Source: Psammoneis japonica (Eukaryota). From it: DNA of 64,000 bases. The position numbers and the translations under genes are program-made. Under the pieces are notes generated by a model. That model was not told the origin of the DNA. It made no database searches and was given only the letters and a program-made list of their open reading frames with translations. Each line of letters begins with the position of its first letter. The stretch's first letter is position 1. The stretch covers positions 248,001 to 312,000 of the forward strand of contig QPGO01000093.1 in NCBI GenBank assembly GCA_008632985.1, read 5' to 3'. Shown one piece after another: positions 17,950 to 51,286 of the stretch.

Positions 17950-19952
17950 GTCCTCCGATGTGCCAGTCACGTGTGGATGTTCACGATGCGAGTTGGTGCA
18001 GCCCAGCGGCACTGTCATCACATTTTGTTTGATCCAGATGGCTCACAGCATCAGCCAGCTGTGTTTTGTGAAAGACTTTTAACTGAGTGCCCATTTGGCT
18101 GCTCAGCAGCAGCCAAAACAAGCATTTTTGCTTGTGGTCTGCCTGCGACGTTGACCTGGAGTGGATGTCATCCAGTTGATGTGCTGAAAGGTGTGCTCAA
18201 AGCTCTCTGTGCACACACACGCTCAAGCTTTGACCATCTGTGCTCACCCAAACTGAGCTGACCTTGCCCTCTCAGTGCCTCCTTCACACAGGGGCTGTGC
18301 TCGACACTCATTTTGCTGAGTGACACCTCTGCCCTGTCTCTGGCACTGCCAGCAGCAGCCAATTTGTTGCATCTGGCCCCAGCACCCCAGCAGCCAATGA
18401 TTGTCAAGAGGCAGCTGAGAGTCCACCACTCATGCTGTGCAGCCCCAGGCTCTGATCCACAGCCCCATGGTGGCCTCCTCCCTGAGAATTGTCAAAACAA
18501 GAGCTCTGTGAGCTCATTTTCCCTGGTGGAAACATCCTGGATGGATGGTCAGACTCAACAGCATCAAGTGATCTGGGCACCAATGCTGCTGGCAGACATT
18601 CCCAGTGCACCACTGAGGATCTGCCTCCTCAGGAGCCAAGAGGCTGTTGACAAAGACTCTGCACCACCCTCTTCTCCCATCACACTGCCAGGATGGCGCC
18701 AAGTTGTCACCAGACAACAACGACGAGTCCAGTGATGAGGACTCATCATCACTGGCTGCTGCACACTGAGGGCCATGCACAGCTTTGCTGCGATGTTTGC
18801 TCCAACAGTGCCGCTGTTGCCTCCATGCACACACCACCACCCAAGCTTGCAATGGGGGTGGGTTGGTGCCAGCAGGCTGCTCCCATCAAGTTTCAAGGAG
18901 AAGAGGCAAGCCCAAGGCCAGCTGGCCTGGTCTGGACCCCTCCATTGACATCTTCCTGTTGCTGCCCAACCACCAGCACCAACCCCACTGCGTTGTGACA
19001 GCCTAAAAAAGAGCAGCCCATCTCCTGCCATGCTGTGCAGGGAAGCTTGGGCTTGGCAGATCAACTGTGTGTGTGCTGCCAGAAGATTGACTTTTTTGAC
19101 TGCAGGATCACCCCAAAGGGGTTTGGCGTTGTGCAGAAGACAGATCCCACTGGGCCTGCTCCTGTGTGCCACCTGTGCTGGACTCAGCCAATGCTGAGCA
19201 CCCTTGCAGCCCAGCAGCAATGAAGCCCTCCCACCAAAATGTCTGCCAAAACCTCACTGTGCCACATCTGTGGTCTGTGGCAAGTTGAGATGCTGGACAG
19301 GAATTGACCTGGGTGTTTCTCCCACTGGCCACATCGACAAGCTGTGCCAGCAGCAATGGGAGTGGTGCAGCAGTGGACAAGGTTTGTGGCACAGTTGCAG
19401 CAGTGGCAACTGCAGCAACCACTGATCCTGAAGGCATGGCAACAGACACAGCCAGGTTGTGCCAGCTGGAAGAAGAAGTGCTTGCTCCCAAGGATGGAGA
19501 GCTGACATCTGAGACTCTGTGGAAGGGGAAAACAGCAGCGCTGAGAAGTGCTCATTCTGGTCTGGCACAAATGACCACAGCAAGAAGCAGTTGGGCTCAC
19601 ATGACTCACCTGTTGCATCTAGCCCAGGTGCCACCAGTGTGTTCCTTGGCTGATCCCAGAGCACGGTGTGCAGCTTTTCACTCACTCCACTTGCTGTGTC
19701 AGTTGTGCTCCCTCACTGGTTTGTTGTGCTTGGGTGCCCTGTGCCCCATTGCATGGGTTTCACTCTTTGCTGCTGCTGGCTGCTGCCCTCCCCCACTTGC
19801 CTGCAGGGTGGTGCTGGCGCGACCCATCATTGTTGAGATTGTCATGTCCCTTGGCACTCTTGTTGTCTCCTCTCAGTTTGCTGGCACCTGCACCCTCTTC
19901 CCACGTGTTTTGAGCTCCTTCTTCCACCTGACAAATGCTGTCTCTCAAGCTC

Positions 19953-20012
<60 letters not shown>

Positions 20013-20560
20013 CTCTTTCCTGTCTGAAGACACAAGGTGGGCTTGGACACCTGTGCTGCTCTCCTTGCCACATGTTCACACCAATGCACACACAAAAACA
20101 TGCCATTTGAGATGTGCTGTGAGCAGGTGTTGCCACGACAAATGCCACCTTGGGCCATTGTGCATGTGCATCATAATTTCACATCTGAGGACATGCAGTG
20201 AACATGACCCCACATGCCCCCCTTGCATCCACATGCAAGACCACACCCTCAAAATGTGCACACTGGGGTGCTGAGATGTGCGCTGAGTGGGTGCTGCTGC
20301 GCTGTGTCAGTGGACTCGAGCACTCTTGCACCAACCTGGCCTCTCAAACATTCTTGCACCCACACCATTTTGACCACAGGTGCCATTGCTTCTGTTGCAG
20401 TTGCTGCTCCAGTGAACACTCTGGAGAACAATGGCGAGCTGTGAGCCACAGATGAGAGGGCGCTGTCTCTGCCACTCTTTTTCTTGCAGAAAAAATGCAA
20501 AAACACGATGTCACTCCCTCCCAGCTGCCCCCCAAAACACAGTGGGCACAATGGAGTGAG
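17950..20560. other. TpA- and CpG-depleted degenerate block
   Basis: Almost no TA and few CG over 2.6 kb. Six-frame translations are Cys/His/Gln-rich and essentially Tyr-free. Confidence 0.9.
19954..20011. repeat. (TG)n microsatellite, ~29 units
   Basis: Read directly from the sequence. Confidence 0.95.
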
Positions 20561-20849
20561 TCACCTCACAATTTTAGAAAGCCTGTTGATTGCCGCATCT
20601 GCTCATTTCTGTCGTACATTGTCAATTCTTGTCACCGTGGCGTGATTTGCTCAAAAAAAGCGCGAAAGTGTGGTGTCTGTTGGTTACCAGCAGGTTGTGT
20701 GCGTCGTTTCGAATTTCACGAGGTCTGTCTCCTCTTGTCACAAAACCTCGCGCGCCGGAAATCTCGCCTGCTGCTTTTTTCTTGCGTCTCGCATCTCGCT
20801 CGGCGCCTTCGTTTGCATCTGTTGTTGCCCATTTCTCAACGAAAGCATC

Positions 20850-27462: not shown

Positions 27463-30400
27463 CTACTGAAACAAATGTAGATGCATGCGATAGAGATCTC
27501 CGCTTTTTACCGTGACCGGGATGACGCCAGACACCTCTTCATCCGCCGAGGCAGGAACACTGATTCTGCCGACGAGATTGGATCCCGCCTTGCTTGTAGT
27601 ATGACGTGGAGCCGACTGGTGGTTGTACAACCACCGCGTGGCGGACGCAGTAGCTTGCTCGAGTCGTTTCTCGGCGGCTGTCGGCTTTGCCAAGGATTCT
27701 TGAAGCAACGCTCTGGAATTTGTCTTGTCGGAACGAGCTTGTTTCAAATCCACAATCGACACGGACGCCTTGGCGAGACGAGAATAGCATCGTGCGGCTG
27801 ACAATTGCTGGAGACAGTGAAAACCGTCATCTTCGGGATCTTGCGTTTTCTCGTCTTCGCTTGTCGTTACACCAGGAAGAGGTGGAAGAGACATTAACGT
27901 AGAAACAAAGGCTTGCGACTTGTATGCCGCAGCCTCGCGTCGTGCCGACTGCAGAGCGGGACGATACAAGGCTGTTTCCATTGCGGCAACACTAGCCGTG
28001 GACGCTGCGTCGACCGGAGGCTGCAAATCAAAACGTCCACGTCTCGAGTCGGTCGAGTACTCTGTAATGGCACTCACGCTGCGTTTGCCCATGTACGAGT
28101 TGCGTCTGCCACCTTTTTGTGGAGACTTTGAGTCTTTGAAAGACCGAATCTCTTGTTCATACTCGTCAACTTGACGTTGGAGCACGTCCATGGCCTCGGT
28201 GAGCTGTTGCAACAGACAAAGAATCGGCAATGAGAACTAAACGAAGAGGACGTTAATGAGAAAACGACTTGATCCAAGATGATCAGACTTACCACTCGAT
28301 TCTCTTCCTTGACACTATTTAACTCCTCTGTAGACACCTGTTCTACGGATTTCTTCACTGGAGAAGAACCCTTTCGTGCCAAGAGCTTTTCCAGTTCCGA
28401 CAGCCTTGCGTTCTGAATTGCAATTTCCTTCGACCGCGACGCCAAGCTCTGCGGGGCAAGACACAACATAGAGAATAAGCGTTGAATACAAGGATCTGGA
28501 GTATAGACAAAAGCAAAGCAAAAGGACTATACGCACCTTCTCCAAGCTGGAAACCTTGGCATTTGCCAGATTGAGCTTGGGCTCATTGGCGACTGCATCG
28601 GACAGTTGCTGTTCAATGGTTCTAGTTCGCACCAAGAAATTGACATCCTCTTCGTCTCCATTGAGGGATCGTACTGCCCGAGACAGACTAGCAATACCAC
28701 TCCACGGATCCTCTGCTTCAGGGGACAAGGGATGAAAGGTACTATTGTCCTCATTATTGAGGCCGGCAGAACGAAGCGCGGCTGAAGTCTGCACCAACGC
28801 CTTCAGCACTTCATCTGCCGCGGACTCACATGTCGCCGCATTCGAGACGGTCGCACTGTCTTCCGACGACAACATAGCCTCCACACTTGCAAGCAGCTTT
28901 GACGAAGCTTCTTTCCACGGAGCTACAGGTTCCGCAACGCTTGCAACAACCTTTTCGTCGCTCACGTCTAACCTAGCCAAACGGACGCACGCCTTGGAGG
29001 CTTCAGAGCACACTTGATCAAGCTTTGACATTAACGAGCCGAGCACAGCCTTGGCTTCATTCGAAGCGCTCTGTCCCGACTCTTCTGCTGCAACCGCGAT
29101 GCAACAGCTGCTCCAGCAGCTAGGCAGGAGAACTTAGACACAGATGCATCTCTAAATAGCCCCATCCCGGAGGCTTCCAGGCTACCGGAAGCAAAAGATT
29201 TCCGTCCGAATCAATCGCGGTGTTCAAATGTTCCATGGCATTCCGAATGCTCTGCTCAAACGATCCGAGATTGGTTTGGTGGGGTGAAAGCACGCCCTCT
29301 TCCTTGAGCGTTCTTAGCATATCACTCAGGGCAACGTCCACGTCTGAAATGGAATGACCAACCAAGGAACCCAATTCCGCCGACGATTGCGGAGTCAAGA
29401 GATCTGGCCATTGCCCAGCCGACAAGAGCCTCAACAAATCCGCGGCAATATCTGTCGTTGCGAGCGCAAACTTGGATTGGTGAATCATGTTTCCTACCGC
29501 CTGTGAAGCATCATCCGACAAGGTCAAAACCGTATTAGGATCAACCTCCATGTCCTCGATAGAAAGAGTTTCGCTGGTGCCCATTCGTATCTTTTGCGTA
29601 AAGATTGTTGCGATTCCGTCTAAGGATCGCGATGCCTTTTCAACAAGCTTGGAAAGTAGCAGCTCGCCCTTGACGGACGCCAGTTCTGACGAGACAACAC
29701 CCTGTGGTAAAAAACTTTCGAGTCGGTCCGACAAGTGACGAAGCACATGGGCTTCAATACGATCAATCACAGCCTCGGCCTCTCGCTTGCGAATGTTTGC
29801 ACCGTCGGCAACAAGTTGAGAAGCCCGGGCAAGCGCCTTTTGGGTAGATTGCAACAAGTCTGATTTTTCTCCTTTTTCGCCCTTTTGTAATTCAAGGAGT
29901 GCACTCTTTTCTTGCTTGAGAGTCTCCACCGATGTTCGATAATTGCTGACGGTCCGCTGAAAGTCTTCCTCACGGCGTCGTTGCCTACGAGAATAAGAAG
30001 TAGTCACAAACAGATTAGACAAAGAGGCTGACAAAACTAAGCCGCAACGAAATGCACGCGATATCATCCACACTCACAGTCGAATAGCTTCTTCTAAATT
30101 CCTCACAATCGTATCCCGTTCTTCCAAGTCTCGCTCGAGCGCCTTGGTTTCCTCTGCCTGCACTTCTTCCATTTCAGCCGTAATCTCGGAAGCCTGTTCC
30201 AACTCACGAATTGTCGTTTGCAGCGCGACATTGTCATCCTCTAAGGCCATGACGCGATCGGACAAGTCCTCCACCATGCCTTCTAACGCACTGCCCTGTT
30301 CCACCATGTCTTTCAAGTCACTAACTTCTTCTTGTAGTTTAGCACGTTCCAGTTGCAGCGATTCGACTTGCGCCACAAGCTCGTTACCCGTGGCGGCATC

Positions 30401-31900
30401 TTTTTCGGCGGCACGCAAGTCACGAGACAAATCCATTTTTTCCATGGCCGATTGTTCTCGTAGTCTGATTAATGCTTCTCGGAGACGGGCATTCTGAATC
30501 GACAAGGCTTGCACGGCATCATCGTCATCCGCGTTACCCGTCGACACTGCTTCAGTAGCAGACGCTGCCGCCGCTTTGCTGTTTTCAAATTCGAGCCGCG
30601 CTTCTTCCGCTTCCATTTGTGCCGTTTCTGCATCAATCTTGAGTTCCTCCACTAAATCCTGAAGCGCTTCCTTTTCTTGTTGCAGCTCTTCTTTATCCAA
30701 GGCCAATTCCTCAATGGTGGTGTCCATTTCGAGTTTCTGTTTTTCCATTTCTTCCACGATGCGATGGGCCTTTTGCAATTCGGCTTGGAGTTTAGCCTGC
30801 TGTTTGTAGTGCTCGTGACTCGACGCTCCTCGAGACGATTCTTGCTGGCGCATGGCCTGCAATTCCAATTCCAACGCCGAGGCGGATGCTTTGGCTTCGG
30901 TAAATTCCGCTGCATCAGCTTTTCGGGCTTGTCGTTCCTGTTCCAAGTCGCTCTGTAGGGTTTTGGTTTCCTTTTCCAAGGACTGTATTTGATCCTGCAA
31001 ATCGTTTCGTTCGGATTCAACTCGACTCAATTCACCCTTCGCCGCATTCAGCGCTTCTCGGGCATCTTCAAGAGTCATCACGGATGAGGATTCTTGTGCT
31101 TGCTGTTGTTTCTGAGTTTCCTCTTGTTCTTTGATAGCATCTAGAGCTTGTTTTGCCGAGTCTGCTTGTGTTTTTGCTTCGTTTGCTTCTTCTTGTGCCG
31201 TGGCGAGACTCTGCTTCAAGGAATCGTTCTCTTGAGCTTTGGACTGCAATTCTGAAGTAAGACTCTCGACTTGAGTCTCGAGGGATACAATTTTAGATTG
31301 AAGAGCTTCGATTTCTTGTTTGGAAGGCCGCAAGGGAGATTTGGAAGTTGCCGATCGTGTTGGCGTGGTGCTACTAACAGTGGGTCTGGTTGGAGTCGTT
31401 CTCGTTGCTGCCGTCCGAGCCGTCATTCTGGAAGCCGCCGCTTCTTCTCGCCGTCTACGAATTTCGTCTAGTCTCGATCGAGCCGATGATGAGGATGACG
31501 GTGACGTCCTTGATGCTGTGGGAGACGTTGCTGCAGCTGTAGGAGATGACACAGCTTTGGGGGCGGGTGAAGACGTTGTCGTTCCACTCTTTGCCAGTTC
31601 TCGCTTCAACCGCAGCTCCTCCAACCTCGACAGTGTTCTTTTCTTGATATGTGACTTTCGCACAAAAACTCCTCCGTTGGGACCACAAGTAAAGTACTGC
31701 TGACCTTGGACTGTGCCGTCGTTCTTGCCCATGCCTACTGATGCACCAGTGAGCTTGACGCCAACCCAATCCTGACCGTCAGCAAACGAAACCTTACCGA
31801 GATAGGCAACGATACCTTCGAGCGGTGCGTGTCCCTCCCCGCGCTCGACATGGACCGGGTCATTGACCTTGAGGTCGGTGGTGCGCATAGGAGACGCCAT
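27463..31900 (-). CDS. DCTN1: Dynactin subunit 1 (p150Glued), multi-exon
   Basis: CAP-Gly domain (WVGV...GKNDGTVQGQQYF), S/T-rich linker and coiled coil with LALDKE, QNARLREALIRLR and EGMVEDL. Confidence 0.92.
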
Positions 31901-32169
31901 GGTGAAACGAAAAAAGATTGTGCTGTTGCCAGAAGGTTGTCGCGCGCGGTTAGTCGGCGGTCATCCTAACAGGGGATCGAGCTCTAAAATACGAGCTCTT
32001 TTCGTTTGTTTGGCTGAGTACACGGACATCAACCAGCTTTTTGGATTTGCAGAGCAATCATCTCCACTCCACCCGTCAGACATGTACAAGGTCTGTTAAT
32101 TTTATTACGTCATTGTGGCAGCCAAGGTCGGTTGCAGGCCTGGGAGGAGAGAGAGAAAAAGCACAGGTC

Positions 32170-32346
32170 AGGTGCAAATCATCATGATGCTCTGCATGTT
32201 TCTTGTCCTCGCACCACAATGACGAAGCCCTGATGGAAGCCCAACTTTGCAAGCTTTTCACCTGAAACTGTCAAGAACATCCACTGAAATCAGAAGTTCC
32301 ATCAAACAGGGTTTTTCTTGTTCCACATTGACACATCTCAAACATG
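32170..32346 (-). pseudogene. Mutated copy of the ceramidase 3' coding end and 3' flank
   Basis: Aligns to ~54368-54539; GTRKTLFDGTSDFSGCS versus GTRKILFGGTSDFSGCS in the intact gene. Confidence 0.9.
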
Positions 32347-32369
32347 ACTTTGCAAGGAATGCAGGCAAT

Positions 32370-33249
32370 GGCAAGTTCCTTGTGTCCTTTGCAAGCAGAT
32401 GATTCCCCAACACATGGCAACTCTGTGCAAAGATTCTTGAGGGTCAATGGCTTGGTTCTTTGGTCACCTGTGGGCTGGTCTTGGAGTGCTTGCAAGAGCA
32501 CATGGCAAAGAGCCAGGCACCAATGTGTGTTGCTTGGTTTTGGGGCAAGGCTCAGAGGAGTGAGGCGGTGATCACTTTCTGCCTGTTGCTTCTGCTTTCC
32601 ATCTTGATTCTTGTGGCCTCAGCATTGGCAGAGCAAAAGGCGCAAGGTGCACCCATCCTCATCCAGTCATGGGTCTTTCCAGTTGTGAGATCCAAAGGTG
32701 GGTGCCACATCATCCATGGCAGCTGTGGCGGCCCCTGCCACCAGTGTTTCAAATTGTTCAGCCAAGTGTCAGCCTTCCTGCATGGCAGCTGCAAATGCTC
32801 TGAGGGTGTGAATCCGATGTTGTTGGGCAATGGTGAGCTTGTCCATGAACAGGTGGTCTTTGAGTTCAATTTTGCCAAGAACAACTTTTCCCAGTGGGTG
32901 AAAGCTGTGTCTTGCTTGTTCTTGTCAGTCTCTTTGGCATTTGCTTCTTGATGGGATCCTTTGGTGTCAAGGAGGAGGTTGGTTGGGAAACAACTTCTCT
33001 GGGCAGCAGCAAGATGCAAAAATTGTGATGAAGCAAAAGGGCAAGTGTGTCATCAGACAAGTTGCTGTCTCTCAACAGGCAGTTGCCAACAACGTTCATT
33101 TTGTCTCCAGGAGCTGTTGGCTGAAGGATTGACTGTTGGCACCCATCATGACAGATGCAAACTTGCTGGCAATTTCTGTCTGCTCTGGGTCAGTCTCTTT
33201 GTCAAAGTTGGATTTGCACAGCCAGCCCATGGTGGCAGTGCTGTTGTCC

Positions 33250-33285
<36 letters not shown>

Positions 33286-34200
33286 CACAAGAGAAAGGAG
33301 GGAAGTTGCCTTTGATGCAAGTGATCCACACACACATGACGCTGGTGATGAATTTCTTGGTGTTGAGGGTGAGACTGTGAACCAGGTGATGGGGGAGCTC
33401 CCAACAATGTGCTCAACCCATTTGGACATTGCAGCTGCCAATGCAGTGTTCTGATGTGCATCCAATCAGCAGACATGGGCGGGTTTGTGGCAAGTGATCA
33501 GGCTCAGGTTGATGCCTGGGCATGGATCATGCTGAGTCAGCACAGATGGCATGAGAAATGGAAAGCATGCAGGACAATGTGTCCAAGATGGTTCAGGCAA
33601 CCAACAAGCTGTTCAATCTCCTTGAAGGCACATCCTCCCCTCTTGACAAGTCTTTGGAGTTGCTTGGACCAGGCAATGAGTTTGTGTTTGGGAAGCACAG
33701 TGCGTGCATGTCGTTTGTTTGACAGTCAGCCAAGGGCTGTCCCAAGCACTTCAAGATGGTCTTTGGTGCAGAGCTTCTTCAAACAAGTGAGATCACCCCT
33801 GGCAAAATCTTTGTGAGGGTGAGCTGGTTGGCCAATGTGTGAATTCCCGGAAGTGCTGTTGCTCTTCTCTTCATTCAATGTTGTCGTCAATGTCAGGTGC
33901 AGCTGTCACTGTGTTGACAATGCAGACCTTGACTGTGCCCATCATGTTGTTTAGAGAAATGTTGACTGGCAAGTTGAGAGCTGGTGTGAATGGCACATCA
34001 TTGCTTTCAAAGCAGGGAGAAGGAAGGTGATCAAGTGTGGGGTTGTGGGGGACTGGGTTCCAGGACTTGCATTGAAGGATGTCATTGGACAGACCACACA
34101 CTGATTTGGAGAGATGTCACCCCACAGATTTGGGTTCAGCTTGCCTCTGAAGGCAAATCATCTAAGCTGACAATGGATTGCATGGTGCTGTGGCACTTTT
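32370..34200 (-). mobile_element. Degenerate DIRS/Ngaro-like tyrosine-recombinase retrotransposon (RT, RNase H and YR relics)
   Basis: RT: LSNDILQCKSWNP...PFTPA...GTVKV(C)IVN at the YIDD position, and EIEQLVGCLNH. RNase H: TAMGWLCKSNF and NVVGNCLLRD. YR: DP*LDEDG...GHKNQD, and IGAWLFAM(C)SC(K)(H)SK for the expected AMRSCEY. Confidence 0.75.
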
Positions 34201-34477
34201 CAAGTGGCCTTGGTGACGGGCCAACTTGTGGTCAATCTTCTGCAGCCATCTCTTGGCATTTGCGTTGGGCTGTTCCTTGGGTTGCAAATGGGAAATCCCC
34301 AAAAATGACTGATTGTGGTCATTGCATTGACTTCTGCTCAAACAATGAAGATCACAGACAAGTGCAAAAGCAATTGCATCAAACAGTTTGTGACCCTTTC
34401 TTTCAAAATGACTCTTGAATGTGTGAACATTGCATTTGGACACTTTTGCTCATTCTCACTCTGGAGCCAATTTGTCC

Positions 34478-34665
34478 CACTCTAGAGCTGTTTGACTCTA
34501 GAGAGAATGTCACACTCTAGAATCTTGGGTTCTAGAATGCCGCACTCTAGAACCATTCAATTCTAGAATGGCACACTCCAGAACTGCTCAACTTCAGATT
34601 GTCCTGTTGTGCAGCCATTTGACTCTAGAATGTCACACTCTAGAACTGCTCAACTCCAGATTGCA
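34478..34665. repeat. TCTAGA-cored tandem subrepeat array 1 (~15-17 bp period)
   Basis: Alternating TCTAGAATGTCACAC and TCTAGAACTGCTCAA-like units. Confidence 0.85.
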
Positions 34666-36239
34666 ACGGCTGCTGTTGAGTTTTGCTTGCATCTGTGGCA
34701 GCTGATGGCACCATGGGTTCCAGCTGATGGTGCCATTTTTTTTTACAGAGCTTGGCAACAACCAGGATCAGATTGCAGCTCAGCCAAGATGTGGTCCATG
34801 TTTGGGCACATGCTGCCATTTTTGAGCAATTCTTTCAAGCTGTTCCCATGGTGTTCACAAACCCAAGATTCCAGCATCTTGACAGATGTGACACACTTGG
34901 GCATGCAACATCAGGCTCTCATCAATTCAGGCTCAAAGACACTGTTGATGAAGGGTCTGGGGAGATGTTGCATGCTCAGGAACAAGAGCCACATGGGACA
35001 CAACATGGCAGCTTCATGTCTCCCCTTGTGTGCAGTGTGCCAAATGACAAATGAAGCAAAATTGAGCATGACATCATGTGCTGGCTTTTGACAACCTCAA
35101 ATTTCACCCAGGTCATTGGTGCCAGGTGCATTGTCCAGAAACAGCTTGTCCTTTTCAAAGCACAAATCACTGATTCCTGGAGCTCAAATGAGAACTTCAC
35201 CAAAATTTCCATTCTCCTGTGCGCAAGTGCAAAATCAACTTTGCCACTGACAGCCAAGGGGAGATGTTCACAAGCAACCACTTGATCTGCAACAGATGAC
35301 TTGCCATGCTGCTTCATTGAATTTGGTGTGAGCCTCTGAAAGGATTGATTGAGTCCTTGGCAAAGCAGTGAAATAGAACATGTGTTCCAGAAAGGAATCT
35401 AAACAGCAAATTGCTCTCATTCAATGGTGCTTTTGTTGCAGCATCGACAGTTGTGAGGACAGCAATGCAACATCCAATCAGAGTCAGAGCCACAAGAACT
35501 GTCAAGACAGAAAAGCAGTGTGCAGGTGGGAGAAACAGTGCTTCATCACTCTTGACAAGATTGCAAAACACAAGCAAGTGCATGAGCCGGCACCTTGCAA
35601 CAACAGAAGCCCAGACATGAGAAAAAGCACCCAAGAACTGACAAGGCAGCTGGCCCTGCGGATTTGGAGAGATCCTTGAGGACATCTCAACAACTGTCAA
35701 TCGCTGTCTGAGATGAGCAACAGACAAGTCAGTTAAAATGTGTGCACACTTCAGAGTGGCTGCATCTCAAGCATGCAAAACAATTTGCGCTCACCCCATG
35801 GATGCCCAAATCACCTTCCATTTCCAAAAGCTCTTCTTTTCCATTTTTGACCAACTCCATCATGTGTCTGTGTAGATCAGAGTGCACCAAAAGCATGAGA
35901 TCTGTTGCACACAGGCCAGCTTGCAATTTCAAGACACGCTGCCAGATTCAGAGTGACCATCCATCAGATTTCTGCTTGACAGAACAGCAGCACTGAAAGG
36001 TAGAATCCTTGCATCCATCCCATTCCCAACAATGGTGAAGCCAATGTTTGGTTGACATGTGTGGGGAGCATTGTTGGTGGATGATGTCACTGCACAATGT
36101 GCGTTGACAACATCAGGGCTGCTTGCAGGAAAAGCCTGCATTTGACCCCACTCAGCCTGCAACATGCATGGCACCAGAGGTGCAAGAATTCTCATCCACA
36201 AAAACAGCACAAGGAATGCTGTGAACCCCAGTGCACAAC

Positions 36240-36680
36240 CACAAATGCAAGACAGCCCACTCTGCTTCAAATGGGTGCCTTGACATTTCCTGTTGCAACA
36301 GCACAAGCAATGGTCAGTGGAGTCTGTGAGAATGTTTCTTTGATGTGCAGACTTCCAAGCCACAAACAACAAACAGCAGAGAAAACAAGCTCACGAGAAG
36401 GTGCAAGGCACCTCTTTGCTTTGCCAAAATGATGGATGCAATGCCAAGACAATTTGCACTTGACAAACTGACAGACATTTCCCATTGCAATTGCACAAGT
36501 GCTGGCAGACAGTGGAGTCCACCATGAGAACATTTCTTTGACATGCAAGCTGTCCAAGAAGCCACAAATCACAAAGCACAGAGCAGACAAGCTCACAAGA
36601 CATGCACGCCATTTTGCTTTGCTGAAATGATGGACATGACCAAGCCAATTTGCACTCGAGCAAATGGCAGTTGCAACAGT
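36240..36680 (+). repeat. Degenerate ~190-bp tandem repeat (at least 2 copies)
   Basis: gacatttc...ttgca...gcacaag...gtggagtc...gagaa...tttctttga...gccacaaa...aagctcac recurs at ~36280-36430 and ~36475-36630. Confidence 0.65.
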
Positions 36681-37636
36681 GTGGGACCCCTTTGAAAACA
36701 TTTGACACCAGGAAGGCACAATTGCCGGGGAACATTCATCCTGAGAGATGCCATTGCTGAAATGCCTGACTGCAAACACAAAGAAAAAAGATGAAGGTGT
36801 GAGCACAAACAGCAAATTTTCTCCATTGCCCACAGTGCTGCTGAACTTTGCTCACCACCACCAACAAAGCAGATGTCACAGATTGGAAAGGAAGCAGTGG
36901 GCTGAGGTGCCGCTGCTCTGCTTTGGACACAGAGCTGTCTGAAGTGCTTTTGACATGTCATGCCATGCTGTTCTGCACCACTTTCTCCTTTGTAGAAGTT
37001 CTTGCAGGTGCAGCATGTTGGGACAGGCAGAAGTGCCAGCATTGTCCACCTCATTGCATTGTTTTGTCATTCGTGTGTGTGCTGAGTGCGTGAATGGTGT
37101 GCGGCTGACAACAGACAATTCACACACCTCTGGCATGGCACAAGGTGTCATTGCTCCCAGACTGGAGTTTGCAGCAACCAGAACACCAATGGCGAGTGCA
37201 AATTTCAACAAAATTCCTCTTTCAGACCCTCTCTGTGAAAGAGAAATGAACTTAGAGTGCAGATGGCTTTTTTCTTAGCTCACAACATTTTTGTGCTTCA
37301 TGCTTTTGGCACAACATTGTTTTGCCAAAAACAGAAGCACAAAATAAAAAACAACATTGCTGACCCCTCACAGGCATGAGGAAAATTCCGGTGGTGTCAA
37401 GAATGGATGTGTTGACAGTGACAGCTGCTGAACTGCTGCAAAAGGGCCTCAAGCTCACCTGTTGTGACTGTGCACAGCACACAGCACCAATGCATTTGAA
37501 GTGTCAAAGACTTGAAAATTGCACTTGGCTTCACCCAGCAGCCTTGTAAATCCTTGGCTTTGCTGGCACATTGGACGTTGGCCTTGTGATCTTGCAAGTG
37601 GACAAAAAAAACAGCTCTGGAGCAGAGATCATCTCA

Positions 37637-37812
37637 GTTCTAGAATGTCCCACTCTAGAGCCATTTTAGTTCTAGAATGCCATGTTCCAGAGCTGTTCAA
37701 TTCTTGAGTGTCACATTCTAGAGCTGCGCAATTCCAAAGTGTCACATTCCAAAACTGTTTGATTCCAGAGTGTGTCACAATCCAGGCTGCATTTGTCCAC
37801 TCTAGAACTGCA
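37637..37812. repeat. TCTAGA-cored tandem subrepeat array 2
   Basis: Same unit family as array 1; several cores have decayed to TCCAGA. Confidence 0.8.
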
Positions 37813-39929
37813 AGCTGTCTCACAGAAGGGACAAATCATGCACAAACAAAACTTTCCCTTGTGATGCAACAAATGTCTTGCTTTTTGTTCCAAATCATGA
37901 CTTTTTTGTTGTTTGAGTCTCACAACAGTCTTTTGTGTTGGCGCTGGCAGCGTCATCATTTGCGCTGGCAGCAACCCACATTGTTGTGGTTGTCATGCCT
38001 TGAGAATCAACAGATCAAGTCGTTTCCTTTTTACAAACAAGTGCATCTTGAATGTGTTTGTCCAATGCCGAGAAGTCTTCGATCATGTCATTTCCGAAGT
38101 GTGTCATCTGGGCTGCCGTGTGTGTCATCATCAATCTTCTTGGTGGCGACACAAATGACACACTCTCACATTTTGCAGCAATGGTGTCTGAGCCGATCCA
38201 TGATGGTGTTGCAGCATGCTCTCGCATGCGTTTCACACCTCGCCGTTTGGATTGCACCTCTCTGTTGCACACATTGTGACAGAAGCAGGCATTTGCAGCC
38301 AAAACAACCAGTCCGTGTGACCAACCTGCACTCCCAAAATGATCTGGTGCCCTGGTTTTGCATGAAGTGGACTGCAGTGCTCAAGCCACTTCTAAGAAAA
38401 CCAGTGGGCTGTTCACTCTGTCTGCTTCCGACGCCAAATCCTGCACAGACCACCACCCAATGCCGCCGCAATGCCAAACCCAACTCTCCATCCGACCTCC
38501 AATGACAAATCCTGCACAGCCACACTTCGCTGCCAACATCCAACACCTCCTGCGCAGCTTCAACGAGACCTGCGTCAACGTGGTTGACTCCAACACCACA
38601 GACTGAAACGCCACCTGCTCCTGCCAGCACAATGCCACCTCCGCCATCAGCCATCAGCGATGACTCCAACATGCTGCCAGCGCAATCACCGCCAAGTGTC
38701 CCCACTTGCGCCAATGCCACTGACTGAATTGCCGGCTGCTCCAGATCCAGAGACAATGACGCCGCCTGCATCAACGTCACCATCAACAACGCCACCTGTG
38801 CCGATGCAAATGCAGCAACACTGCACACACCTCCCTCTGCCCAACCTCTGATGCTGTGAGTCCTGCAAAGACACCCACCCAGCACCGCCGCCATCACCGA
38901 ATCCATCCATGCAAAGCGCGGCCAAGCCCCTGGTGTCCCCTTTGACGAAATCACCACTGCCTCGGGCAACTCATGCTCGCTCCAACAAAGCACCCAACAC
39001 GCCACCACCTGTGTCAAGAAGACTCCATGTCGGACTGCACAACTGAACCAACATTTCTGTGGCGACTCTTGGCTGATGCGAGTCATTCAAAAATTTGCTT
39101 GAGCGTGTGTGGGACCCAAAACATTGCGAGTGTCGCACAAACACATGTCCCATGATTGTTTCATCCAAAGGAAGAAGCGATGTGAGTTTTTCATGTCGCT
39201 CGGAAAGAAAAAAATGTGAGGTGCTGAAAAGTTGAAAAGGTCATGAGATGACACTCTGCACAATGCCTCGCATGATTTTTCTGCAGCGGATGGAAGAACA
39301 GACAATGTGCCGGGCCCACAGCTGTGATGTCCCACCTTTCACGTGGTGTTCTCAGCACTGCACTCCCAGTCTTGCAGCCCCCCATTGCTGTCCAGTTCAT
39401 TGGCAACTTCTGTCAAAGCTGACATGTGCTCCTGTGTGTTCTGCTCTGTTTGCACCTTCTTGACACTCTTGTTGCAACTCTTGAGAGACATCTCTCTTGC
39501 CTCCTTGAGCTTGTCTGCTGGCTCCTGCACCAATCCTTGTTCTGTTGGCTGTTCTGAGTCTTTCTCCAACAAGGTGAATGTGCTCAAGCCATTGTCTGCA
39601 TCCTTGTGCACTGCCATGGCTGTTTCTGGCATGATGCTTTTTCACACAAGTCCTCCCTTCTGGTGACAGAGTTCCCTCATTGTTGACCTCAACATCACAG
39701 TCTCTCATCAAAGCACTCTCCTTGTTGTTGCTCTTCTTGTACTCTGCATGCCACACATCAACAAAGTTGTTTTTCATGAGCATGCACCCAAAAGCTTTGG
39801 CACACAACATGTTCATCCTCATGGGGTGCAACTGCACAGTCTTGTGCTTTTGTTTGGCATCCAACCATGCCATGCATTCAGTCAACAAGCATGTTTGTTT
39901 GTTTTGTTTTGCATGCCAGAAGGTGGGTC

Positions 39930-42900
39930 AACTCTCGCTGGCCCTCAGACAGACATGCAGAGTGAGAACGCCTTGTTGATCTGTGCATTGCCCTTGTGAG
40001 ACAATGTCAAATGTGCTTGCCTGCTGAAAAAAGCATGAGAGGCTTGTGAAGCGCACAAGAGCCATGTGACCTGATCAGCTGTGCAAGCAAATGTGGCACT
40101 GGATGACTGTTTTCTGCCAGCTGTGTCAGCCAATGGCAGCAGAGCAGTTGTCAGAGTTCTTGTTGAAAGAAGAGCTCTCCAGCGGGCACAGGAGTTGCAG
40201 GGGCAGGTGCTGCATCTCACAGCCTTCCTTCTTGGCAGTGAGCAGGACTTTTTTGGCAGGCCAAGAAGGGCAAGCAAAAGCTCACTGTCACCTCACCTTG
40301 CTGAGTCAAGATGGTGCTGAGAAAATTGCCAATTTCTTCTTTGCAGCAAAGACTTTGACTTCACCATCAAGAATCCTCACATTGCCAGCATGGCCAACAG
40401 CTTCAACTTGTTTGTTGCTTGTGAGACAATGTCAATGTGCTTGCCTGCTGAAAAGCATGAGAGGCTTGTGAAGCACACAAGAGCCATGTTGTGACCTGAT
40501 CAGCTGTGCAAGCAAATGGCATTGGATGGCTGTTCTCTGCTGGTTGCATCAGCGCGCCATTGGCAGCAGAGCAGTTGTCAGAGTTCTTGTTGAAAGAAGA
40601 GCTGCTTGCACTCTCTCCGGTGGGCACAGGATTTGCAGGGGCAGGTGCTGCATCTCACAGCCTTCCTTCTTGGCAGTGCACAGGACCATTTTGGCAGACC
40701 AAGAAGGGCGATCAAAAGCTTGCTGTCACCTGGCCTTGCTGCACCCTGACGGTGCTGAGAAAATTGCCAATTTCTCCTTTGCAGCAAAGACTTTGACTTC
40801 GCCACCATCAAGAATCCCCACATTGCCAGCGTGGCCAACAGCTTCAACTTGTTTGCTGCTGGCACTTTTTGAGCTTTGTTTCTGCACCCACAGGTGTTCA
40901 ACCAACCTTCGCCACTTGTTTGTCAGGTTGTCATCCTGTCTGCAGCTGTGGCGCAGTGCAAGGCAACTGCAGTCAGAGCCTCTTTGCAGCACAAGTTCTT
41001 GTGCACAGAGCTGTGGTGGATGTGGAGCATCAGCCAGAGGTGTGTCACACAACACAGGACATCTTTGGCTGATGAAACCAAGAGAAAGCATCTCAAACTT
41101 TGCAGTGGAGAGGATGTTTTGCAACGCACAGCTGCCAATGAGAGTCGATGCATCACGGCGACGTGTTGCAGCCTTTAAATGTCACAAAGGGCGTGACAAA
41201 AATGACCTTTTGTCTGCATGCATGCTGCGTTGTGATTTCATGGCGGAGTGGTTCATCTCGCAACCATTGGGCAGGAGGCCAGGGGTTCGAAACCCTGAGT
41301 GGGAGTTGTCTGCAGCAACGTTGATCACTGTCGAACGCGCAAAACTCTGTGCAGTTCTGTGTGTTCCTTCGCACGTACCCACACTGTTCCGCCAAAACCG
41401 TGCAGTGTCAGTGCACGTCAGTAAAGAGCCGCATGGACGCGTGACACATGGGGAGGAGTGCAATGTGCAGCTGCCAACAAGAGCCAATGTGTCACGGCGA
41501 CGTGTTGCAGCCTTTAAATGTCACAAAGGGCGTGACAAAAACAACCTTTTGTCTGCATGCATGCTGCAGTTTTGCTCTGCAGTGGCGCAGCTTTTGGAGC
41601 ACCAGAGAGACAGCTGTCATGGAGGGCAAGCAACACACAACAAAGAGGAGTTGCAAATTTGTTGCAGGTCCAAAGGGGGTGCTTCCTGCAAGGAAGCAAT
41701 GCTGCTGCTTCACCTGACAATGCTTGCCACCTGTCTCCCAGTGTCGTCAGAGGAGACGCCTGAGACCATGACGTGTGTGCAGCTGAAGGAGCCAGTGTGC
41801 GCTTCAAGTGCACGGGAACAGCTTCCAGCTGCGCACAGGCAGCTGTGCACTGATGAGAAAATTCTCTTGATTTTTTCCTTGAGCAGGGGTTTCATCCAAA
41901 GGATCACTTGAGAAAAAATCAAGGGGTGGCTTTGCCGCAAAAGAATTGAAGCAGTTGCGTTTCTTGTCCAAGAGAGAAAGCAAGACCCCTGATGATGGCA
42001 CTCTGTGTCACTTTGCAAGGCACCATGCATCAGATTCAAAATCAAACAGGAAAGAAAGCTCTCCTCTCAGTGAGCCAAGCTTCAAAATGATGCTCAAGAA
42101 CTGCTTGCTGCACACAGTACATCATGTCCAAAAATTGCAGCTTCAGAAAATGACAAAAAACTGGCAAAGTGGGAAATGATGACCACTTTGCAACAAATTC
42201 AACTTCATGACATGAAACCATTTGGAAGCTTCTCCATGATCTCTGTTGCCTTGTTGGGCGACTCTGAAAGTGCAGTGCTGCTGTGGCATTGTGCCCATCA
42301 GATCTTTGTCCTTCAAATTTGGGAGCCTGCTGCAAGAACCCCCCAGCTCATTCAGCTCAGGACAAGTGGGCAAACCTCCCTTTCACAACCACTCAAAAGA
42401 TCCAGCAAAGAACAGATTTGGGAATTCCACACCCTGTGTGGGTGGTTGCAAAGATCAACCTTCCACTGCAGCAGTGTTGTTGGTGCCAAAGGTGTTTGGT
42501 GTGCTGGAAAACCCCAACATGATGCAGGTTTGGAAAGACACAAAAAGTCTTGCCAATGCTGCAAAGGTGTTTGGCACATTGGAGAACACCAAATCATTGA
42601 CTTGGATGGCCTCTCTGGGCACATCAGGTTGCAGCTGGTTTGTTTTGGATTGTTGCACTCATTGCAAAAACAAGTGGTGCACAGAGCCAGATCACAGTCA
42701 CAACCCAATGTGATTTTGCCACAGACAATTTTGTGCTTCTTGTTGTGCAGCTCAGTGAGGCAGTGTGGCATGCTGCAGATGCAGCCTGGTTTGATGCAAC
42801 ATGCTGAAGGGCAAGATCTTTCTTCTTCTTCTTCTTCTTCTTCCCTGGCATTTGACTGACCCCTCTGCAAAGACACAAGAGCCCCTTGAATGGAGCCAGA

Positions 42901-45285
42901 ATTGCCAACAAAAAAAGCCAGATGTCCTCTTTGTGCATGCCATCTCTGTGACTCAGATGGGGGCATCTTGCTTTTCTGTCCCCTTTGACTGGCTGGCCTT
43001 CTGGCCAACATGCCTTGCAACTCTTGTGCTGAATGATCAGCTGGGTTGTGCTGGTGTGTGACAGCTGGTTGTTTCTGAACCTGTGACATGATGCCTGTCT
43101 GGATGACTTTGTTGCCCATGCATTGGGCCCAAATCTGCACATCTGACCAGGTGCCTGGTTTTTGCATTCCTTGTCATCTTTGTTGGGAGCATGCACTGCA
43201 ACCCCCTGTCTCTCTGTTCTGCCATCTTTTTGCAGATGTGGCCTTCCACAGCTGAAATGCACCATGGTGAGTGTGGCTGTTGCAGACAGCAAAAATCCAG
43301 ACCTTGGCTCAGCTTTGCTCATTGACTCTGTCCAGCATCCAATTGGCACACATCAACTGCTTCCTGCAGCAATGACCAGTCAGGTTTGGAGGGGTGTGTC
43401 TAGCTTTTTCATCCAAAAACAGCTGGGCTCACATTTCATCACTCCGCTCCAGCACTCTGGAGTTGTCTTTGTTCTGACTCCCACTGCAACATCCTGACAG
43501 CATTGCTGCACTCAACCATTTCTGACAAAGGCCAGTTTTTCAGAGGTGCTCACATTTGCAGCAGAGCTTGGAAAACACCTTCATTGGGAGTGTGACATCC
43601 ATGGCAGCTCAGCTGGTGCTGAAGAGTGGTTGCTTGCAACAGAGTTGCCAGAGCAACTCAATCCAAGATTGGGTTGCCAGCCCCCAAAGCCTGTAAAAAT
43701 TCAAAGTGAAGAGCTGGCCCACAAAATGCTCTGCTTCTGGAGTTGTTGTTTTGAGAGCTTGGCAGAGCTCCAGACCCATTGCTGAGGGCAGTTTGCTCTG
43801 TTGAAAAGGAGCACTTCCAGCTTTGCCAGTCTCCAAGTCCATTGAATCTCCACAGTGCTAAAAAATGCAACACCTTCATTGAGCGAGAGTGGGCAGAGCC
43901 CAGAAAGGGCAGTGCTGCCTCAAGCTTTAAACAAGGGTTTTTGCATCTGTGTGGGCACCCCCTTTTTGTCATCAAAGCAGTTGCCAGTGGGCACTCCAGC
44001 AACTTTGGAACACCTCCTGTCAGCAACAGCAGCAACTCTGCATGGGTGAGGTGACCACATTGCACCTCATCACCCCACTCCACTTTGTGACCTTTGCTTG
44101 CATTGCACCTCTGCCTTTGCCCTCAAGTTGCCATCCACAGTGACCCACACCATCTGCAAAAACTTTCCTTGCTTCCTGGGCCTCTGTGGCTGGTCAAAGG
44201 TGTCATTCTGCCTCTTTGCAACCCAGGAGGGGGACACCACCTGGCATTTGCTCTGTCATCTCCATTGTCTGGCAGCACTGTCTGTTGGTTTCCCACACCA
44301 CTTGAAAGGGGCCAGCAGCCAGAAGCTTTCATCTGACCCAAGTGCTTGTCCAGCAGCAGCACACTCTCTCCCTTCCCCCAACAGTCAACCGCATGCTGAG
44401 TGCCACCAGAGTGCCACCACCTTCTTGCAATGGGTTGCCTTGCCACCTGCTGACATGTCTGGCAGATCTGCGCCATCCACAAATGTGTGGAAGGTGCAGC
44501 GCTCATTTTGTGTCTGTTTCTAAAAGGCCGCATTGCTTTGATTTTGCTGCTTTGTTTTTCACATCAGCTGTCATGATGTTTGACAATTGACTTCATGGCT
44601 GGACACAAAGGCAAAGTTTTGAAAAGTCAAAAACCAAAGTTTTCTGGGCCAATTTTGACAATTTGAGGTAACTCATTTTGAAAAATGGGCTCTTTGGAGC
44701 TGCTCTGAGATCTTTTGTCTTGGGCATCGTGTGCCACAGACCACGGGGGTTGGGAGAATGCACAATTGTCTGTGTGGCTGTGGATCTTGCAATGGGTGGG
44801 CCTTGATCTGAGCTGAGGGCATCAGATGTTCACCGGTCATTTTGTGCACACATGCGCACAAAACAACAGACTGTCTCTGTGTGCCTCTGGAGCATGCCAC
44901 CCAGAGGCTCACTCCACAACTTCTGAGCTGCTGGTTGGAAGCAGTGCCAAAGGAGGCAAAAACAGCAAAAACAGCCAGTGCTTCTGCAGAGCCTCGGGCC
45001 AAGCCTCTGCCAAGTGAGCATGGGGCAAGTGACAAGCTGGGGCAGCCACCCACAGCTTCAAAGTGTGGCTTTGCTGTTGTGTTGTGGCAAGCGTGCTGGT
45101 GCTGCTCTGACCCAGACCATTGCGCCACTTCATTCATTTTTTTGACATCTCATGCACTGATGTCACTTTGTGAGCCATGCATCCATTTTATTGCTTCAAA
45201 TCTTGAAAAGTGTCTGTTTCATTTGGTTTCATGCGTTTGTTGTGTTTTGTTTGAAAATTTCAAACGGCATGGCATTTTTGAAGCC
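39930..45285. repeat. Copy A of a ~5.4-kb directly duplicated unit, with an internal tandem duplication (39997-40415 / 40418-40860)
   Basis: Collinear matches: 39930-40230 with 45750-46050; 41630-41985 with 46070-46400; 41985-43570 with 48370-50070; 44970-45285 with 50440-50710 plus 51290-51415. Confidence 0.8.
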
Positions 45286-46759
45286 ACCATGCAAACCACA
45301 TGCTGGTCATGGTGCACAACCAAGTCACAGGGCTGGAACATGTCAGCATGATGTTCCTTGCACATGACAGAATGCAAAGGCACAGCAAGTTTCCTGCCAG
45401 GAAAGATGGGAAGCTGGCTGGTGCTGGCATCAGCAACATCTTGGAAAGCCCTCCTCAATTAAGAGCACCAGGCATCTCATGGCTGTGCTGATTGTGTCAT
45501 GTGAAGACACACACATTGATCTGTTTTCAGCACCCTGCAAACAAGAATGCACAGCCAGGGATGGGGTGACACACTCTCAGCTTCCAGGGCACACAGGGTG
45601 CTCAAAACCACAGAGCTTCTTGGACACCTCTGTGCAATCAGAGATCCATCCAGCACAGAAAATCAAACACCCAGGTCAGGAGACAGATGTTGGGTCATGC
45701 CTGTTTTGACACACAAAAAAATCCAGCAAAGTCTGAACCCATGTGGCAGTCAACTTTTGCTGGCCCTCAGATGGAAATGCAGAGTGAGGATGCCTTGCTG
45801 ATCTGTGCAGTGCCCTTGAGACAATGTCAAACGCACTTGCCTGCTGGAACATGGGAGGCTTGTGAAGCATGCAAGAGCCATGTGACCTGATCAGCTGTGC
45901 AACAAGCAAGCTGGCTTTGGACAGCTCTGTTTTCTGTGGTCACATTGGCGCAGCTGCAATTGCTGGAGTTTTTGTTGAAAGAAGAGCTCATTGTGCATCC
46001 TCTGCAACTGGCACAGGAGTCATGGGGACTGGTGCTGCATCTCACAGCCTTCCTTGGTTTTGGGGTCATCCAGCGCACAATCAACCCACAGCACAACAGC
46101 AACCCTGTTAAAAGAGTTGCCCAAATTTGTTGAACAATGCTTGCTGCCTGTCTCTTGCCATCACATGAGACATTTGAGATCATGGTGTGTGCGCGGTTGA
46201 AGGGGCCAGTGTGCTTCAAGTGCACAGGCACACTTTCCGGCAATGCAGAACTGCAAACTGATGCAAATTGTCTTGATTTTTTCCTTGCGCAGGGGCTTCA
46301 TCCACAAAGGATTGCTTGAGAAAAAATCAAAGGGGTGGCTTTGCCGTGCTGAAAAATTAAAAAAAGATTGAAAAAGTTGCATTTCTTGCCCAAGAGAGAT
46401 GTTGCAGTTTCACAGCTTGCTGCCCAGTGTGCATTTGGTCTCACTGACCCCAAATTCATCATGTGGCTTTCAAACACATTCCAGTGCTGTCAACCTCTGT
46501 TGCCACATTGGCCGGGTGCAAAAGCCAAAAGGTGAGCACAAGACCCACTCAATCCAAGTTGCAAACGCAAATTTGCCACATTGATCACAATTGTCAATGT
46601 GTCTTCCACTGCAACTTTGTTTGTCTCTGTCCCACAAAATCTGCCTCCAACCCCAATGTTCCAAAACACTCCTTTGCACAAGCCATCAATCGACTGGCCT
46701 TGTGTGTGTCAAACACAGGAGGACAACACTTGGAATCCATGCCACAATCCAATGCCACA

Positions 46760-47900: not shown

Positions 47901-47943
47901 TCCAGCTGACTCGCTCATCACAATCTGCCAACACAAGGCATGC

Positions 47944-48033
47944 CTTTGGATTCCTGTCAACTTCCAGCTTTTCCTTTGGATTCCTGTCAATCTCCCAGCC
48001 CTTGACTTTGGATTTCTGTCAACTTCCCAGCCT
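47944..48033. repeat. Three ~30-bp tandem repeats (CTTTGGATTCCTGTCAACTTCCCAGC-like)
   Basis: Read directly; lies at the 5' side of the gag relic. Confidence 0.85.
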
Positions 48034-50726: not shown

Positions 50727-51286
50727 CCCTGCACAAGAAGTCTGGAATGTTGAACTGCGTAGAAACCGTCGTAGAATCAGCACCAGGGTGGTCAAAAAAG
50801 TCTGGAATATCCGATTTTGACAGAAAACACGTAGAATCTGGTGTAGAGTCAGTACCAGGAATATCCAGAAAAACACGAAAAATCCCGCTATTCCAGACTT
50901 TATTGGCTTTTCTGGTACAAATTCTACCCTTGTGTCCAGCTTTGGCCAAAGTTGGCCACATATCCGGGTTTTCCTTGGTACATATTCAGCGTACATTCTA
51001 CGCAGTTGGCCAACATCGACTCGAGCTCCGATGACTGGTTTCAGATTTTGCGGCCGGCTCGCGCGAATTTTTCGTTTTTCGACGTTTATTATGCAGCATT
51101 TCTGTTTGAAAATGTCCACAATTATGTTGTATTTTATTCATTATATATATGTTAGCACTCGCCACTACACGTTTGTACCAAAGCACACGTAGGGCAGATC
51201 GCTTCACCGAGCTCGATTCGAACGAAATCCCGTTTAACTGGACTCAAGGCTACGCAGGAATGATATTCCAGACTTTTTGTATCGGG
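50727..51286. mobile_element. MITE with TA target-site duplication (Tc1/mariner-type TSD) and ~35-bp imperfect TIRs
   Basis: Left end TA|CCCTGCACAAGAAGTCTGGAATGT...TGCGTAG; right end reverse complement CCCGATACAAAAAGTCTGGAATAT...TGCGTAG, followed by TA at 51287-51288. Internal AAGTCTGGAAT subrepeats. It splits sequence homologous to 45110-45285. Confidence 0.8.

Follow-up and report, generated by a model that had tools for sequence, protein, structure and literature searches.

A Ceramidase Gene Relic at the Edge of a TpA- and CpG-Purged Block on a Diatom Chromosome Is Consistent with Two In-Place Transition Processes

Introduction

The nearest described counterpart of the locus reported here is found in the chlorarachniophyte Bigelowiella natans. 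In mutation-accumulation lines of this organism, two integrated viral regions were reported to mutate ~1000-fold faster than the remainder of the genome (Mettrop et al., bioRxiv 10.64898/2026.01.13.699255), and the accessible text of the preprint describes the hypermutation as almost exclusively TpA to TpG or CpA. An ADAT2-like adenine deaminase is proposed there by the authors, whose Discussion also recalls that ADAR prefers a U on the 5′ side of the edited A (bioRxiv 10.64898/2026.01.13.699255). For diatoms, CpG methylation of transposable elements via DNMT5a has been described (PMC9998398, PMC2806351), and DNMT4, a RID-related enzyme whose function is not known, is stated to occur in many of them (PMC9998398). 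Searches of the literature revealed no account of either TpA depletion or TpA hypermutation for this group. Fungal RIP is coupled to the sexual cycle and involves DNMTs of the RID type, and its "leakage" has some effect on adjacent single-copy DNA.

The locus considered here lies in a 64,000-nt stretch of the genome of the diatom Psammoneis japonica, which is referred to as the window. Its central feature is an 18.6-kb block, hereafter the purged block, at whose left edge lies a fragment of a nearby ceramidase gene, hereafter the relic. The main features are:

30077 to 31960, minus strand: CAP-Gly coiled-coil gene, dynactin p150-like (Pfam CAP_GLY, E=8e-18)
32107 to 50724, no strand assigned: purged block (TA o/e 0.04, CG o/e 0.18, CA 1.82, TG 1.86)
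54367 to 57400, minus strand: intact neutral ceramidase gene, introns present (Pfam Ceramidase_alk and Ceramidse_alk_C; stop codon at 54440-54442)

Comparison with Described Systems

The diatom locus and the B. natans system, as presented in the available part of the preprint, share the transition of TpA to TpG or CpA, the confinement to delimited regions with a normal genome elsewhere, and a long-term footprint of clustered TpA depletion and CpA/TpG enrichment in mostly unannotated DNA. They differ in lineage, a stramenopile here and a rhizarian there, and in the kind of evidence, which is a footprint alone here and a measured rate in B. natans. The depletion is also deeper in the diatom, with a TA o/e of 0.04 compared to a Rho of 0.45 in the B. 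natans NCLDV region. CpG loss accompanies TpA loss here, whereas the preprint text at hand makes no mention of CpG; similarly, Y-TA-R sites are spared here, while a flank preference is not described in that text. Finally, the targets in the diatom include a host-gene relic and repeats, with no recognizable viral genes.

The resemblance to fungal RIP consists in the irreversible inactivation of repeats by context-specific transitions and in sharp-edged blocks of skewed dinucleotide content. RIP, however, makes TpA from CpA, whereas the block destroys it (TpA o/e 0.04, CpA 1.82), and RIP mutates both copies of a duplicate; at the present locus, the relic has lost 17 of 18 sites and the intact gene was spared. 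Fungal RIP was rejected as the cause on both of these grounds, i.e., the destruction rather than creation of TpA and the untouched partner copy. The CpG decay of methylated transposable elements likewise converts CpG to TpG or CpA in repeats, consistent with the CG o/e of 0.18, but it accounts for the CpG half only, not for the TpA loss, and gives no account of TpA-lacking blocks that keep their CpG. ADAR and APOBEC provide a precedent for deaminase-driven transitions as a defense; they act on RNA or single-stranded cDNA with a strand bias, in contrast to the balanced TG and CA of the block, where one dinucleotide is targeted and a non-mobile gene relic is hit.

Results and Discussion

The Purged Block

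The base composition of the purged block is unaltered, and the deviation concerns its dinucleotides. Only 49 TA remain, compared to ~650 expected from the density of 0.035 per nt in the normal parts of the window, and TA-free runs reach 2152 nt, while in normal DNA a gap of at least 200 nt has a probability of 9e-4. At the left end of the block, no TA occurs in 32107-33951 and no CG between 32224 and 32565. The edge itself is delimited by position 32106, where the last TA stands, and by position 32176, where the relic has lost its first TA; it is therefore resolved to ~70 nt. The start of the CAP-Gly gene is ~210-270 nt away, with the edge on its upstream side. The genes flanking the block exhibit a TA o/e of ~0.5.

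The missing dinucleotides are recovered almost quantitatively as their transition products. Per kb, and with normal DNA of the window as the reference, the block has 32.2 TA and 48.7 CG fewer and 43.4 TG and 39.3 CA more, i.e., a combined deficit of 80.9 against an excess of 82.7, a balance which presumes that the block started with the composition of the neighboring genic DNA. The same holds inside flank classes, e.g., -23.9 versus +23.9 for Y__Y. Furthermore, the two strands are equally affected: TG occurs 2144 times and CA 2173 times over 32001-51000, and this balance argues against the editing of single-stranded RNA or cDNA.

No protein domain was recognized in the block. None of the 273 stop-to-stop ORFs of at least 45 aa that were searched (150 of the 155 ORFs of at least 70 aa, and 123 of 45-69 aa) gave a Pfam match above the gathering score, although heavy mutation could conceal coding regions from such a search. 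The only two sub-threshold matches, DUF7079 and TNFR_c6, both have E ~0.01. A reading made earlier from the sequence only had labeled the neighbor of the relic a DIRS element; this assignment is not supported by the Pfam matches of the 273 ORFs, among which tyrosine recombinase, reverse transcriptase and RNase H are absent. The long frames (479, 306, and 265 aa) were not accepted as genes; they seem to be fortuitous, the scarcity of TAA and TAG having left them open. For ORF 46914-47573, a search at E<=1e-3 yielded no relatives, and Rfam recognizes no family in the window.

Anatomy of the Relic

The relic comprises 256 nt on the minus strand (32171-32426) and consists of two joined pieces of the neighboring neutral ceramidase gene:

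32171 to 32337, minus strand: relic piece A (blastn versus 54367-54530, E=2e-29)
32338 to 32426, minus strand: relic piece B (matches 55893-55981; blastn E=8e-4 for 55893-55975, and tblastx)

Piece A is 76% identical to its counterpart over 169 blastn columns and contains the final 32 codons of the gene together with 73 nt of 3′ flank, so that both the homology and its extension into the 3′ flank, as originally proposed, are borne out. Piece B abuts it directly and corresponds to the first ~29 codons of a middle exon. The comparison of 32338-32430 with the gene yields a local score of 43, while the maximum among 500 dinucleotide shuffles is 32 (z=10), and this ceramidase exon is the top match of this segment across the whole window. 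At 32337/32338 the partner thus switches from the last exon to another of the ceramidase exons; the pieces are non-contiguous there, with a 1362-nt internal deletion between them, and the homology of piece B stops at the intron-acceptor position of the intact gene, i.e., at an exon boundary. This architecture does not agree with the simple duplicate assumed previously.

No trace of the gene was detected outside these limits. An intron or upstream exon beyond 32427 was not found, the score of 32405-32900 (27) lying below the shuffle maximum of 32, and transition-blind purine/pyrimidine coding gave a score of 22 against a shuffle mean of 23.9, i.e., no homology. The same coding revealed no homology to the left of 32171, and a poly(A) tract is absent beside that position. 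A processed (retro) pseudogene was considered and rejected: neither a poly(A) tract nor an upstream exon joined at 32427 is present, and the pieces are not colinear with the mRNA unless a 1362-nt deletion is assumed. As origins of the relic, DNA-level duplication, an RNA-derived copy, and acquisition by a mobile element are indistinguishable here; the fragment could be what is left of a tandem duplicate, or a product of template switching. In the preferred reading, it is a non-functional remnant, present in single copy, of a duplicate of the nearby neutral ceramidase gene. With 256 nt and 76% identity, it says little on whether homology once triggered the process.

Loss of TA and CG in the Relic

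The relic and the gene were compared over 264 columns of true homology, and dinucleotides were counted in ungapped columns. The intact gene has 7 TA and 11 CG in these columns, with one more of each opposite gaps. The relic retains none of the 7 TA and 1 of the 11 CG (at 32210), whereas 146 of the 213 remaining dinucleotides are conserved (Fisher p=1.4e-7). The 7 TA became TG (four), CA, AA, and TT (one each), while the lost CG became CA (six), CT (two), TG, and CC (one each). Accordingly, 12 of the 17 altered sites ended as TG or CA, namely, 5 of the 7 TA and 7 of the 10 lost CpG. Both Y-TA-Y sites were converted to TG. One relic CpG, at 32223, stands opposite a TG of the intact gene, and the two sequences also differ by indels and transversions.

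These counts refine the initial claim that every TpA and CpG had been lost from the copy: the statement holds for TpA, while one CpG is kept. The 5 TA and 4 CG counted for the intact interval 54440-54539 were confirmed. Of the nine losses listed for that interval, 1 TA and 2 CG, at 54531-54539, had been paired with non-homologous bases, and one of the examples given, acg to atg, falls in this incorrect pairing.

Ordinary pseudogene decay, with CpG lost through methylation and TpA through chance or drift, is a highly improbable explanation of the losses. The relic is old, with ~14% divergence outside TA and CG (30 of ~209 positions, from alignment counts), and CpG decay is expected in methylated diatom repeats (PMC9998398). 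Nevertheless, the loss of 7 out of 7 TA has P ~3e-4 at the 31% loss rate of the other dinucleotides, and the deficit is not restricted to the relic, taking into account the 49 TA left in 18.6 kb where ~650 are expected and the 2152-nt run. Moreover, a 500-nt interval fulfilling the purge definition occurs in none of 23 unrelated eukaryotic metagenome loci, and the intergenic DNA of the window is not TA-deficient.

The Intact Ceramidase Gene and the Direction of Change

The gene outside the block has the features of an intact neutral ceramidase. It matches the solved structures PDB 2zws and 4wgk and is full length, its tblastn alignment running colinearly along residues 19-732 of a diatom ceramidase of 813 aa. 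Its top matches are the diatoms Craspedostauros, Amphora, Seminavis, and Nitzschia, with 64-74% identity over a 180-aa query, a set that by itself would point to a diatom, probably a raphid pennate. Its 3034 nt contain 121 TA and 150 CG, a normal density. Since this copy, 22 kb away, is untouched, the process is confined to the block, which agrees with the earlier suggestion that, unlike RIP acting on two copies, it is limited to that domain.

At constrained residues, the outgroup ceramidases (diatom, plant, human, and bacterial) side with the intact copy, sharing YRICH[FY]GTR and C[IV]A.GPG.DM. For the C-terminus, 13 outgroups were aligned (11 diatom, diatom-like, or related-alga matches and two plants): YR[IVF].H[FY]G is found in 12 of them and YKICYFG in one, while the relic reads (..)MCQCG. 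For piece B, alignment succeeded with 14 of 15 outgroups; the 11 diatom or diatom-like sequences have C[IV]A[FS]GPG and the remaining three (one Triparma and two plants) CY[SG].GPG, compared to AIACIPC in the relic. The reference role given to the functional copy is therefore upheld by its full length and by the outgroup comparison, which had been named as a check and in which the outgroups, at constrained residues, carry the intact states rather than those of the relic.

The codon view is consistent with this polarity. In the relic, ATA (I) has become ATG (M), CGA (R) an in-frame premature TGA stop, and the stop codon TAA, as the sequence-only reading had noticed, CAA; synonymous changes are TTC-G to TTT-G and TTT-A to TTC-A. 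At one position the ancestral codon, ACC (Thr), is preserved in the relic and has become ATC (Ile) in the intact gene, and therefore both lineages have changed. On the evidence of these alignments, the TA and CG losses occurred in the relic lineage, in the direction TA/CG to TG/CA.

Two further observations concern the surroundings of the intact gene. Overlapping plus-strand ORFs for an astacin (51990-53288) and a HYR domain (53089-54045), convergent with the ceramidase gene, lie between it and the purged block. In three related diatom metagenome loci, which at 54-73% amino acid identity are too distant to be decisive, neither CAP-Gly nor astacin is located beside the ceramidase gene.

Repeat Content and Independent Loss in Adjacent Copies

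The purged block is a mosaic of nested repeats with a widely varied copy number. Two diverged repeat copies are part of it:

39927 to 45282, plus strand: repeat copy 1 (self-blastn, 71-84% identity to 45749-51415)
45749 to 51415, plus strand: repeat copy 2 (self-blastn; contains a 1.96-kb insert)

The insert in copy 2 is bounded by ~260-nt direct repeats (46406-46661 and 48096-48365). This ~260-nt sequence occurs once more in inverted orientation at 50088-50363 and, with ~15-35 copies, looks like the terminal repeats of a small element. Between copies 1 and 2, CA stands opposite TG at 52 of 412 sites (12.6%), compared to 1-4% for seven other double-transition pairs. This discordance indicates that many TA and CG sites had persisted up to the split of the copies and were lost independently thereafter. 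Two candidate second internal controls, 51359-51415/45226-45282 and 50441-50553/44979-45086, are too short to inform.

Summed contig depth in one public sequencing run gives the copy numbers. Relative to a single-copy level of ~62, it reaches ~20,000-45,000 at 40538-41871, 900-2100 at 46541-48541, and 250-400 at 37870-39870, so that the repeat content of the block ranges from ~4-fold to ~700-fold. The segment 40538-41871, with ~300-700 copies, is without TA but keeps CpG (o/e ~0.7), has no Rfam match, and contains an internal ~340-nt repeat (41120-41228 and 41459-41567, 90% identity). Two related 31-nt tandem arrays, 34504-34584 and 37685-37751, hold 13 of the 49 surviving TA, mostly as CTAG, and may represent element termini or recently duplicated units. 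To the right of the TA-free edge, 50725-51415 is repeated (depth 380-1000) yet has normal TA and CG and carries the short repeated motifs cgtagaatc and gtctggaat. The description of the block as foreign or repeat DNA derives from copy number, and the relic and ~300 nt beside it are single copy: contigs of the run span 31200-32727 in one piece with 2 differences and a depth of 65.6 (baseline ~62), placing the relic and its surroundings at one copy at >=80% likeness.

The same contigs bear on the possibility that modified bases were miscalled in the long-read assembly. The affected dinucleotides can indeed carry base modifications, but contigs at ~62-fold word depth reproduce stretches of the block with 2-4 differences, among them 42770-43999 (three) and 44002-45901 (four), and the relic also differs from the intact gene by indels and transversions. 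These contigs may derive from the same sample as the window assembly, which limits their independence. Altogether, a base-calling artifact is hardly credible.

An alternative of more weight is that the purge preceded insertion. The ceramidase pieces would have been captured by a mobile element or virus, TA and CG would have been lost in its lineage, e.g., through RNA/cDNA editing or episomal life, and the unit would then have been inserted beside the CAP-Gly gene; the relic would in that case be uninformative on in-place, domain-wide targeting. The non-contiguous pieces, with one break at an exon boundary and an end 73 nt past the stop codon, do resemble a capture, the purge edge (32107-32176) coincides with the relic end at 32171, and much of the block is multi-copy. 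However, the stretch 31200-32727 is present only once at >=80% likeness, neither a poly(A) tract nor an upstream exon was detected, TG and CA are balanced on the strands, and the adjacent repeat copies lost TA and CG independently. A further, anecdotal point against purge before insertion is that, among the 13 differences listed between the run's single-copy contigs and the window, three fall on remaining TA or CG and in a fourth TG is read as CG. Altogether, an order of events with the purge first appears unlikely, and mutation in place is the preferred reading.

The differences just mentioned were collected over 32727-35200, and the four in question, at 33094, 33720, 34164, and 34542, are CG>CA (twice), TA>TG, and TG>CG (once each). 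As 4 of the 13 differences listed involve remaining TA/CG sites or TG/CA products, this anecdotal set hints that such sites in the block are still polymorphic.

Separability of TA and CpG Loss

Three smaller blocks of the window, 1-1000, 1534-2745, and 10745-12772, are without TA but keep much of their CG, with a CG o/e of 0.4-1.0. Inside the big block, 38000-39500 and 40500-41500, the latter including the highest-copy repeat, are also TA-poor with much CG retained. Because some TA-lacking blocks keep CG, the loss of TA is separable from that of CpG, and it seems to precede CpG loss where copy number suggests youth.

As to the contents of these and similar blocks, ORF 248-655 in the block 1-1000 matches Pfam ART (NAD:arginine ADP-ribosyltransferase, E=8e-7), the sole domain found in the three smaller blocks; none of 69 ORFs of 60-109 aa in three other purged blocks gave a Pfam match above threshold. 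A further 2.5-kb block between ordinary genes, 18081-20574, has 4 TA left and a CG o/e of 0.13, and shows neither similarity to the big block nor a Pfam match.

Flanking Context and the Mutated Base

The TA that survive in the purged block are not a random sample. Y-TA-R accounts for 32 of the 49, while normal DNA has 182 of its 1124 TA in this class (p=1e-13), and for 19 of 36 when the two 31-nt tandem clusters are left out (p=9e-7). R-TA-Y, on the other hand, represents 3 of the 49 survivors versus 340 of 1124 in normal DNA. The three smaller purged blocks display the same survivor trend. Y-TA-R is the only flank class with no T-A-pyrimidine on either strand, and the pattern suggests a preference for T-A-Y or, equivalently, for R-T-A if thymine is the base that is hit, although context-dependent creation of new TA could also be its source. 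Support from other tests is modest. The conversion of both Y-TA-Y sites of the relic to TG agrees with what a T-A-Y preference predicts. The discordance between repeat copies shows a mild enrichment in the expected class, R__Y (15 of 65, compared to 7-14% in the other classes), whereas the TG excess in Y__Y contexts that would be expected under T-A-Y was not seen in the TA-only blocks. Among the surviving CpG, R-CG-Y is relatively the most frequent.

These results leave room for a different chemistry, in which the thymine rather than the adenine of TpA is mutated, e.g., an oxidized or hypermodified T of the 5-hydroxymethyluracil type that mispairs with G; this concerns the chemistry only and would produce the palindromic footprint without an adenine deaminase. 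5-Hydroxymethyluracil is known from dinoflagellates, where it is enriched at TpA. TA is self-complementary, so that A-to-G and T-to-C are indistinguishable both here and in the available preprint text. The outcomes in the relic are lopsided on the plus strand, though with small numbers (TA to TG 4:1, CG to CA 6:1), and 10 of its 12 changes to TG or CA are pyrimidine changes on the sense strand of the gene, as the thymine reading would favor. Nonetheless, this 10:2 asymmetry is marginal (two-sided binomial ~0.04), the survivor pattern can be read equally as T-A-Y or R-T-A, and nothing was found to indicate that diatoms contain such a base. Mutation of the thymine is thus rather unlikely, and deamination of the adenine is the favored chemistry.

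Conclusions

Collectively, these findings are probably best explained by a silenced repeat block in which two in-place transition processes, TpA mutation of the B. natans type and methylated-CpG decay, are near completion, with the relic caught inside. A host-gene fragment would have been trapped at the very edge of a silenced, repeat-rich block on the diatom chromosome, and all DNA of the block, whatever its origin, would have been mutated in place as double-stranded DNA. The first process would be hypermutation of TpA to TpG or CpA, with the signature known from B. natans, most likely through deamination of the adenine of T-A with T-A-pyrimidine preferred. The second would be the conversion of CpG to TpG or CpA by deamination of 5-methylcytosine in methylated repeats. 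The losses and their direction, the mass balance, the independent changes in the repeat copies, the strand symmetry, and the sharp edge are direct observations. The enzymes involved, the methylation of the block, and targeting by silent chromatin or by foreign or repeat status are presumed components of this mechanism.

What makes the relic valuable is that it stems from the host and can be compared with a living copy of the gene elsewhere in the window. This comparison demonstrates that mutation produced the skew, which is not the native composition of a foreign element, and that the process tracks location rather than sequence identity. Compared to what the accessible text on B. natans describes, the new elements are the diatom lineage, the co-occurring CpG purge, the host-gene relic as internal control, and a candidate extended motif. 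The sparing of Y-TA-R offers a testable enzyme motif. For diatom genome annotation it matters that purged blocks defeat protein-based repeat annotation.

More tentatively, and with somewhat less than even confidence, diatoms may possess an active, domain-restricted defense that removes TpA from silenced DNA of repeat or foreign nature by T-A-pyrimidine deamination, corresponds to the B. natans system, acts on any sequence in the domain, and outpaces CpG decay. If the two systems are the same, the mechanism would either occur widely across the SAR supergroup or have arisen by convergence. If true, a TpA-based, RIP-like strategy of "mutate the invader", known so far from one 2026 preprint on a rhizarian alga, would extend to the diatoms, which are major marine primary producers.
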